Source of the DNA: Dictyostelium discoideum
Lineage: Eukaryota
Assembly: GCA_000004695.1 (NCBI GenBank)
Contig: CM000151.3
Span: 2,176,001 to 2,240,000, forward strand
Direction: 5' to 3'
Length of the DNA stretch: 64,000 nt
In this document: positions 17,772-20,700 of the stretch, one piece after another
Layout of the letters: each line of letters opens with the position of its first letter
Position numbering within the stretch: position 1 is the stretch's first letter
Notes under the pieces: generated by a model
Seen by the model: the letters and a program-made list of their open reading frames with translations, nothing else
The model's database searches: none
What the model was told of the DNA's origin: nothing
Position numbers and translations under genes: made by a program

Positions 17772-20700
17772 ATGGCCAACAGTAATAATAATAACAATAG
17801 TAATAACAACAACAACAATAGTACATTTGGTTACAGTAATAGCGAATGTAGTGGCAGTAGTGGTAACCTATTAATGACTTTAGACCCTGATAATAATCAA
17901 TCTCAATTAGAAGAGATTGAATGTTTAAAATCAATTTATAGAGTAATTATTTAATATTTATATTATTATTATTATTATTATTATTTAATATTAACTCATT
18001 ATATTATTATTATTATTATTATTATTATTATTTTTATTATTATTATTATTATTATTATTATTATTATTATTATTATTATTATTATTATTATTATTATTAT
18101 TATTATTATTATTATTATTATTATTATTATTATTATTATTATTATTATTATTATTATTATTATTATTATTATTATTATTATTATTATTATTAAAATTAGG
18201 ATGAATTTGAAGAATTACCAACAGAAGCAGTTTGTAGAAGGTTTAAAATAACTTTAATTCCTCATCCAACTAATCAATATCAAAATTTTTGTGCTGGTAT
18301 GTGTATATTATTATTATTATTATTATTTTTTATTTTTATTATTATTCAATTTTACTAATGTGAGATATTATTAATAAACAAAACAAAATTTAAAAAAATT
18401 TTAAATTTTTAAAGTTAGATTATATGTAAAATATTCACCAAATTATCCAGTATCATTACCAACGATTGAATTAGAAAAAGTTAGAGGATTATCAGATGAT
18501 TTAATAGGGGAATTAAGTTTTTTATTATCACAGAAGATGGCACCAGGTGAAATTATTATATTCGAATTATGTCAAGCTGTTCAAGAGTTTTTATTACTAT
18601 ATAATAAAGAAACGGTTTCATTACATGAAGAGATGATTAAAAGATTGAATACAAATATCAATAGAGTCAATAGTAGTGATGATATTAATAATAATAATAA
18701 TAATAATAATGATGATGATGATGATAATGATGATTACGATGATTCCGATGACGAAAATAGTGATAGCGATTATGATGATTATGATGATTCTGATGATGAA
18801 AATTCTGATGATGAATTTTATAGTGATGATGAAGATTATAATACTCGTCATCAAATGGGTGATATTGGTTCAAGTGTAAACAAAATAATTAATAGTATTG
18901 ATCATACAATATCACATGGTGGTGGTGTTGGTGTTGGTATTGGTAGTGGTAATGGTTTATTTAGTAAATCATCATCATCATCATCACCAATGATTCCATA
19001 TAATTTTAGTTTTGATTCATTGAATGGTTTTGATCCGGATATTATTTTTGAGGATAGTTTTCAAACACCACTCAAGGGCAGTTCAAGTATTGACTTTGAG
19101 GAAATGAATAATTTAACAAATAGTAATAATAGCAATTCTACTGCTACTACTACCACTACTACTACTACTAATAATAATAATAATAATAATACTAATAATA
19201 ATAATAATAATAATAGTAATAATAATAATAATAATAATAATAATAATAATAATACTAATAATAATACCAATAATAATAATAATAATAATAATAATAATAA
19301 TAATAATAATAATAATAATAATAATAATAATAATAATAATAATAATAATAGTAATAATAATAATAATATAAGTAATAATAAAATTAATAAAATTAATAAT
19401 AATAATAATAATAAAGAATTAATAGATAATAATAATAATAATAAAGATAAAGAAAATGATTTAATAAATGATACAATACCAAAGATAAAATGGAAAAAAG
19501 GAAGTTGTATTGAAAGGAAATCTAATTATTCAGTTTATAGGGGTGTAGATGAAGATACTGATAGAAAATTAATTTGTAAGATCGTAAATTTAAATATTGA
19601 TGATAGATCATCATCCTCTTTAACATCATTGTCGAATAGTAATAATAATAATAGCAATAATAATAACAATAACAATAACAATAATAACAATAATAATAAT
19701 AATAATAATAATAATAATAATAATAATAATTTATCAATTGATGTGGTTGAATTAAAAAAAAGATTAATTGAAAAGGTGAAAATGATTCAAAAAGAGATAG
19801 AGTCTATGAAATATTTAGGTAATCCTTATATTATCAAATATTTAGGTACAAACTTTCAAGAAGGTCAAAATACACTTTATATTTTTCAAGAATATAATTC
19901 AACATTAACATTACAACAAAAGATACTTTCAAATGGTATTGGTTTTGAAGAGAGTCAAGTAAAGAAATTCACTTACCAACTATTATTAGGTTTATTATAT
20001 TTACACTCTCAACATATACCTCATAGAGATTTCAAATCTCATAATATCTTTTTCAACCAATCAACTTCAAAAATGTTATTATCAAATTATGGTGGCAGAA
20101 ATATTAAAATTTTTGATCATTTTGAAAAATTAAATTCTTTAAAAAATTTAAATTCTTGGATATCAAGTACAAATAATAGTATTAATAATATCAATAATAT
20201 CAATAATAATAATAATAATAATAATAACAATATCAATACTACTACTACACAAAATCAAATTAATAATGAAATTGATAGACGTGAAGATATTATTAATTTA
20301 GGTATAGTTGTTTTAGAAATGTTATGTGGTAGTGATTTAGCAAATAATCAAACTGTTTTAATTTATTTAGCACAATTGAATTTATTGAATAATCAACAAC
20401 AGAATCAAAATTTTATACAACCACCACCTTTACAATACCAATTACAACAACAGTATGATTTAATTAAAGAGATTGAACAAAAGACTCATCCATCATCGCC
20501 CATTTCAAATAATGCAAAGGATTTCTTATCACTTTGTTTCACGATCAATGGTAATGGTAGCACTAATGATAGCTTAGAGGCTGGTATCCTATTGAAACAT
20601 CCTTTCTTGGCTTCAAATTCAAATTCAACTCCACCACCTTCAAATTTCTTAAATTTTACAAATAATATTAAATTTTTGGATCAAAGATCCGCTGCTACTC

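Follow-up and report, generated by a model that had tools for sequence, protein, structure and literature searches.

Evidence that the RWD domain of the Dictyostelium discoideum GCN2-type kinase gene ifkA is split across three exons

Does the GCN2-type kinase gene ifkA of Dictyostelium discoideum encode a complete RWD domain, the part of GCN2 that associates with GCN1 (review PMC10002013)? The locus lies in a 64-kb stretch of D. discoideum DNA, referred to below as the window, whose GC content of 22%, long runs of A or T and coding sequence rich in Asn are what one expects of Dictyostelium. The listing of open reading frames (ORFs) in the window gave an ORF of 2258 amino acids (aa) at 18537-25313, beginning MAPGEIIIFELCQ, and one of 60 aa at 17772-17954. 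An earlier note on this DNA had proposed that the RWD domain is split over two small upstream exons and the 5' part of a main exon, with canonical GT/AG sites and consistent phases, and that a gene model confined to the long ORF would be without the domain. The practical value of the answer is in annotation quality, as an ORF-based ifkA model would give the false impression that the domain by which GCN2 docks on GCN1 is missing from this kinase. The evidence set out below makes it highly probable that ifkA has three exons and encodes a 2388-aa GCN2-type kinase with a complete RWD domain split over them.

Joining 17772-17942, 18200-18296 and 18415-25313 produced a coding sequence of 7167 nucleotides (nt), with a 2388-aa product and a terminal codon as its sole stop (Table 1). 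All the exon coordinates proposed in the earlier note held, as did the splice sites and phases. An in-frame TGA lies one codon 5' of the ATG at 17772, and reading through the donor of intron 1 leads to a stop after 3 codons, which is where the 60-aa ORF ends (17954). The frame of exon 3 is open from 18405, so that 44 open codons stand upstream of the ATG at 18537. Intron 1 (GC 1.6%) has just two G residues, one in the GT and one in the AG, and its acceptor is therefore unambiguous for the donor at 17943; the first AG past this donor is the acceptor at 18198-18199. The GC content of intron 2 is 9.3%, compared with 25-29% in the exons (28.7% in exon 1, 28.9% in exon 2 and 25.4% in the 122 nt before the ATG at 18537), and that of the upstream intergenic DNA is 12.9%. 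Dictyostelium introns normally have a GC content of <15% and a length of 60-250 nt (PMC1420674). Both introns look like Dictyostelium spliceosomal introns in their GT-AG ends, in-frame joining and low GC, with intron 1 lying 7 nt over the quoted size range. The peptide across the exon 2/3 junction is NFCAVRLYVKY, in which the junction codon, G/TT, specifies Val; the G with which the exon 2 peptide had been closed in the earlier reading arises from read-through of the donor, and has to be replaced by this Val. The EEIECLKSIYRDEFEELPTEAVCR peptide is part of the three-exon product and not of the product beginning MAPGEIII.

To measure the domain itself, translations were compared with the Pfam RWD profile PF05773, a hidden Markov model (HMM) whose curated gathering threshold is 22.8 bits. 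The three-exon product scored 71.5 bits (E 7.9e-20) and covered positions 2-112 of the 112 in the profile, in agreement with the proposal that one RWD domain is divided over three exons, and the product of the 2258-aa ORF alone gave no match to this profile, as expected of a gene model that leaves the domain out. The open frame of exon 3 from 18405, together with the start of the ORF, scored 38.2 bits (profile 50-112), and exons 2 and 3 together scored 47.8 bits (profile 16-112). Exon 1 contributed a further 23.7 bits, widening the coverage from 16-112 to 2-112, while a product in which exon 2 was skipped scored 43.2 bits (profile 30-112). When all GT/AG pairs in 17900-18450 were enumerated, 42 two-intron and 2 single-intron models were open. 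The three-exon model had the highest score of nine that were scored, with the eight alternatives at 42-68 bits, and it is thus the best but not the only possible model. Three variants in which junction 2 is shifted by a few bases scored 66.5-68.0 bits, below the 71.5 bits of the three-exon model, and are without the Val common to three dictyostelid orthologues. Our choice at junction 2 was made because of the GTATGT donor, the conserved Val, and the position of the intron in an orthologue.

Comparison with known structures gave the same domain. With phmmer, sequences in the PDB that matched were the mouse GCN2 RWD domain 1ukx (E 4e-12), human GCN2 (8t7t and 7e2k), and the yeast GCN2 RWD domain 2yz0, and the GCN2 alignments with 1ukx, 8t7t and 7e2k were gap-free at both splice junctions. 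An AlphaFold2 model of residues 36-172, made from a 33-sequence alignment, had a mean predicted local distance difference test score (pLDDT) of 88.9 and the order α1-β1-β2-β3-β4-α2-α3, that is, the RWD-type α-β-β-β-β-α-α. In model residues, its elements are helix 4-24, strands 25-31, 34-41, 54-60 and 71-78, and helices 82-95 and 103-116. In a Foldseek search of the PDB, the best matches were crystal structures of the human GCN2 RWD domain (7e2k, template modelling (TM) scores 0.75/0.80), followed by mouse GCN2, yeast GCN2 and other RWD domains. The YPxxxP loop is present as NYPVSLP, with Y65, P66 and P70 invariant in the 33-sequence alignment. In the model, the exon 1/2 junction maps to the end of α1 and the exon 2/3 junction to the start of β3. 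Met131, encoded by the ATG of the long ORF, sits in the loop between helix α2 (82-95) and helix α3 (103-116), which bears out the claim that this ORF begins at the last canonical RWD helix.

Relatives of the N-terminal sequence were sought in an exhaustive HMMER search over 1.84 billion representative proteins, and three close ones were found, Polysphondylium violaceum KAF2078430.1 (69% identity), a protein of Synstelium polycarpum (73%) and a EukProt entry (65%). KAF2078430.1 is 2096 aa long, and its 69% identity extends across residues 12-170 of the N-terminal query. All three relatives are gap-free over ...SIY(R/S)D(E/G/D)F..., ...N(Y/F)(C/N)(A/S)V(R/K)L...KY and ...SQKM..., and because the same ungapped sequence is found in each, the junction Val and the internal Met (in SQKM) are conserved. 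The P. violaceum gene is interrupted by two introns and no more, 71 and 83 nt in length; the first follows the Arg codon that also precedes intron 1 of ifkA (phase 0), the second splits the same Val codon as intron 2 does (phase 1), and the exon 2 that they enclose has 97 nt. Splicing at those sites yields the deposited protein exactly. Separately, we note that the Synstelium orthologue appears to be split over two adjacent models, P0123 and P0001 (EukProt P007983 and P007982), which hold an 832-aa N-terminal and a 675-aa C-terminal part, and that the model P0122 has ∼210 additional N-terminal residues before the RWD domain, which probably stem from a fusion to the gene next to it.

The gene is D. 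discoideum ifkA, which encodes a GCN2-type eIF2-alpha kinase. Table S2 of the kinome paper by Goldberg et al., 2006 (PLoS Genet 2:e38, PMC1420674) lists IfkA as the edited model DDB0185218e, and our spliced product is the same over 399 of 399 comparable N-terminal residues, both splice-junction residues included. The numbering in the alignments of that paper, in which the first IfkA kinase domain begins at residue 449 and the second at 1024, agrees with a protein of 2388 aa but not with the 2258-aa ORF, and 'IfkA-b', from residue 1024, is placed in the class Other/PEK/GCN2. The identical IfkA sequence dates from a 2006 publication, and the three-exon model was thus already known. Neither the ORF-only nor the spliced protein was exactly present in a 15-billion-protein collection in which Dictyostelium is poorly covered, and the 2258-aa product was not recorded as a called gene in the collections searched, where the coverage of Dictyostelium is poor. 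In a word-indexed homology search, the spliced N-terminus had no match and a query with the kinase and histidyl-tRNA-synthetase (HisRS) regions matched only proteins of at most 711 aa; because the index is evidently without long dictyostelid proteins, these negatives are uninformative on public annotation.

Downstream of the RWD domain, Pfam Pkinase matches were found in 3 stretches of IfkA, and the eIF2-alpha-kinase domain contains a long low-complexity insert. The order found, RWD, kinase-like domain, eIF2-alpha kinase, HisRS-like region and C-terminal region, is that of a GCN2-type kinase. The primary paper on eIF2-alpha phosphorylation by this protein is reportedly that of Fang et al. 2003. 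Phosphorylation of eIF2-alpha by IfkA has been reported, as cited in later papers (PMC3293825; PMC13063481).

Table 1. Positions in the window of the ifkA exons, introns, encoded domains and intronic repeat (TRF, Tandem Repeats Finder).
Feature	Position	Strand	Details
ifkA exon 1	17772-17942	+	171 nt; aa 1-57; phase-0 end; Asn/Ser-rich leader and RWD helix α1 (…QLEEIECLKSIYR)
Intron 1	17943-18199	+	257 nt; GTAATT…TTAG; phase 0
(ATT)n microsatellite	17961-18192		232 nt; TRF period 3, 76.7 copies, 93% matches, 3% indels, score 409
ifkA exon 2	18200-18296	+	97 nt; aa 58-89 and first base of Val90; end of helix α1, β1-β2, next loop
Intron 2	18297-18414	+	118 nt; GTATGT…AAAG; phase 1; interrupts Val90 codon G/TT
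ifkA exon 3	18415-25313	+	aa 90-2388 and stop; remaining RWD, both kinase domains, HisRS-like region, C-terminus
RWD-coding genomic span	17901-18593	+	aa 44-149; both introns fall inside
ATG of 2258-aa ORF	18537-18539	+	internal Met131, not start codon
N-terminal kinase-like domain	19491-20615	+	aa 449-823; HRDFKSHN; 'IfkA-a' begins at 449 in the kinome paper
eIF2-alpha-kinase (PEK/GCN2-class) domain	21216-22991	+	aa 1024-1615; HRDLKPAN, DFG; Pfam Pkinase 247.8 bits
Histidyl-tRNA-synthetase-like region	23139-24086	+	Pfam tRNA-synt_His PF13393, 66.6 bits; ORF aa 1535-1850
Anticodon-binding-like region	24306-24632	+	Pfam HGTP_anticodon2 PF12745, 58.8 bits; ORF aa 1924-2032

Several points weigh against the three-exon structure and the role assigned to its RWD domain. 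That the introns are removed in vivo, and where transcription starts, is deduced rather than observed, the variants at junction 2 are just 3-5 bits lower in HMM score, and binding of GCN1 by the IfkA RWD domain is argued from homology with other GCN2 proteins. In addition, the suffix 'e' in DDB0185218e marks an edit by the authors relative to the dictyBase model then current, the nature of the difference being unstated (PMC1420674), and at least one curated ifkA model once disagreed with the three-exon model.

A further question is raised by a 2023 review, according to which Dictyostelium expresses GCN2 isoforms that lack the RWD domain, and which infers GCN1-independent activation for them (PMC10002013). 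The statement does not hold for IfkA, and the inference of GCN1 independence is not applicable to it, because the genome sequence, three orthologues and the edited model of 2006 show a complete and conserved RWD domain. The statement may refer to IfkB, to whose model the inference may apply. The IfkB model DDB0185219 (PMC1420674, Table S2) begins MIGKGGFGVV inside the kinase domain, and has neither the RWD domain nor the first kinase domain. Either truncation of the gene model or partial duplication of the gene may account for this. Its kinase domain hardly differs from the one in IfkA (tree distance 0.0001; PMC1420674). Beyond this caution over the review, our results say nothing new on the biology, and the structure of the gene is ordinary for the organism.

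Could ifkA produce both forms, with the three-exon mRNA accompanied by an RWD-less isoform from Met131 that arises from an internal promoter or from intron retention? We regard this as very unlikely. Mouse GCN2 has isoforms of this kind, which differ N-terminally. In favour of two forms, AT-rich tracts resemble Dictyostelium promoter DNA. The statement in the review would also fit, but it may concern IfkB, whose listed model begins inside the kinase domain. Conservation of Met131 permits internal initiation without demonstrating it, and this residue, which is internal in three dictyostelid orthologues only, lies within the RWD domain, a location that explains its conservation. Nothing in the sequence supports the production of both forms.

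An ORF-only gene, in which transcription starts in or past intron 2 and the ATG at 18537 is used to make a 2258-aa kinase without the RWD domain, is extremely unlikely. This ATG does open the long ORF, the three-exon IfkA of the kinome paper, as its table presents it, differed from the dictyBase model of its day, and the review could be read in the same way. However, the 44 open codons upstream of the ATG, taken with the start of the ORF, already match positions 50-112 of the RWD profile, and addition of the two upstream exons makes the domain whole and brings the score to 71.5 bits. Three other dictyostelids share the exon sequences, the residues at the junctions and the internal Met, and P. 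violaceum also shares the positions of the introns. A product that begins at Met131 would, judging from the AlphaFold2 model, retain just one RWD helix. The absence of the exact 2258-aa product from the collections searched is a weak point on the same side, Dictyostelium being poorly covered there. A functional RNA in the introns or 5' region was rejected, with Rfam matches far under threshold.

We return to the three-exon structure, under which expression of ifkA can be pictured as follows. The pre-mRNA would carry two short, extremely AT-rich GT-AG introns, and splicing would join exons 1, 2 and 3 into an mRNA for a protein of 2388 aa, whose predicted order from the N-terminus is RWD, kinase-like domain, eIF2-alpha kinase domain, HisRS-like region and C-terminus. 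Exon 1 would supply helix α1 of the RWD domain, exon 2 would supply β1 and β2, and exon 3 would supply β3, β4, the YPxxxP loop, α2 and α3, so that the ATG of the long ORF would be translated as an internal methionine. If the RWD domain acts as it does in the GCN2 of yeast and mammals, it would then dock IfkA onto GCN1 on ribosomes.

Intron 1 had been described as an essentially pure (ATT)n array of about 80 repeats that separates two parts of one domain. The count comes close, at 76.7 copies, but the purity is confined to the 3' two thirds, where the longest pure (ATT) run, of 52 units, extends over 18036-18191. No AT-only tract in the window is longer than the one at 17998-18198, with 201 nt; the runner-up has 118 nt. 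The type of repeat is common, with 17 pure ATT or AAT runs of at least 8 units in the window. The array would be removed by splicing, and it is a lineage-specific expansion within an old, conserved intron. Because it is intronic, changes in its length would leave the protein unaltered. Over 21 kb (window 41031-62213 compared with JBTAPE010000001.1), the window and a second D. discoideum assembly, GCA_054883475.1, have an identity of 99.6-99.7%. Indels between the two assemblies fall in homopolymers or in an AT-rich stretch adjoining an (ATT) run, which makes changes of length in such tracts plausible, and instability of the ifkA array is a fair expectation. A short tandem duplication is suggested near 49.7-49.8 kb, where the window is longer than the second assembly by ∼150 bases and contains two (ATT)11 runs separated by 137 bp. 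One may speculate that variation in the length of the (ATT)n array tunes splicing or expression of ifkA, or that the AT-only tract serves as an internal promoter for an RWD-less, GCN1-independent isoform from Met131. Both ideas are very unlikely; if true, they would reconcile an intact RWD domain with the RWD-less forms of GCN2 that the review describes in Dictyostelium.

Some features around ifkA were noticed as well. Upstream, at 15317-17253 (+), is a multi-exon AB-hydrolase/lipase-like gene (PF04083 relatives), for which the word-indexed homology search, with its index lacking long dictyostelid proteins, found nothing close. An (AAT)32 tract at 15394-15489, which reads as poly-Ile in the raw ORF of this gene, is probably another microsatellite-filled intron. 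At 17298-17340, ∼45 nt past the stop of the lipase-like gene, a perfect 20-nt palindrome (CATTACCAAATTTGGTAATG) stands between an A-run and a T-run; it may form a 3'-end or terminator-like hairpin, and is the reason for weak, sub-threshold mir-451 matches on both strands. The interval from the stop of the lipase-like gene to the start codon of ifkA contains two short ORFs that begin with ATG, at 17327 (10 codons) and 17526 (4 codons), and whether they belong to the 5' untranslated region of ifkA depends on the transcription start. The 64-kb window contained no tRNAs. Around ifkA are large paralogous genes for surface proteins with TIG/EGF-like repeats, at 3871-10060 (-), 26226-35697 (+) and 46634-49312 (-), some of which share long near-identical stretches, for example ...KEFTFAGNQFTVSKDGFKLSLSVSNWNYKSNLNTLQIQMSSDISTTE... 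in the ORFs at 3871-5460 and 8747-10060.

How IfkA compares with known systems can be stated at three distances. From the published DDB0185218e, the 2388-aa product has no detectable difference over the N-terminal 399 residues that the comparison spans, the C-terminal 1989 lying outside it. The RWD domains of mammalian and yeast GCN2 (PDB 1ukx, 7e2k, 7e2m, 8t7t and 2yz0) match IfkA in sequence with E values of 4e-12 to 2.5e-5 and in fold with TM scores of 0.58-0.75, normalised to the query, and they share with it the YPxxxP loop and an N-terminal position in a GCN2-type kinase. In contrast, identity is ∼24-34%, IfkA has a 43-residue Asn/Ser-rich leader ahead of the domain, and GCN1 binding, which has been demonstrated for the mammalian and yeast domains, is expected of IfkA by homology only. 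The third comparison is with P. violaceum KAF2078430.1, which is like IfkA in its domain order from the RWD domain onward, in the positions and phases of its two introns and in its 97-nt exon 2. Unlike those of D. discoideum ifkA, its introns have GC contents of 28% and 23% and neither has an (ATT)n array, and the P. violaceum protein carries fewer low-complexity inserts than IfkA.

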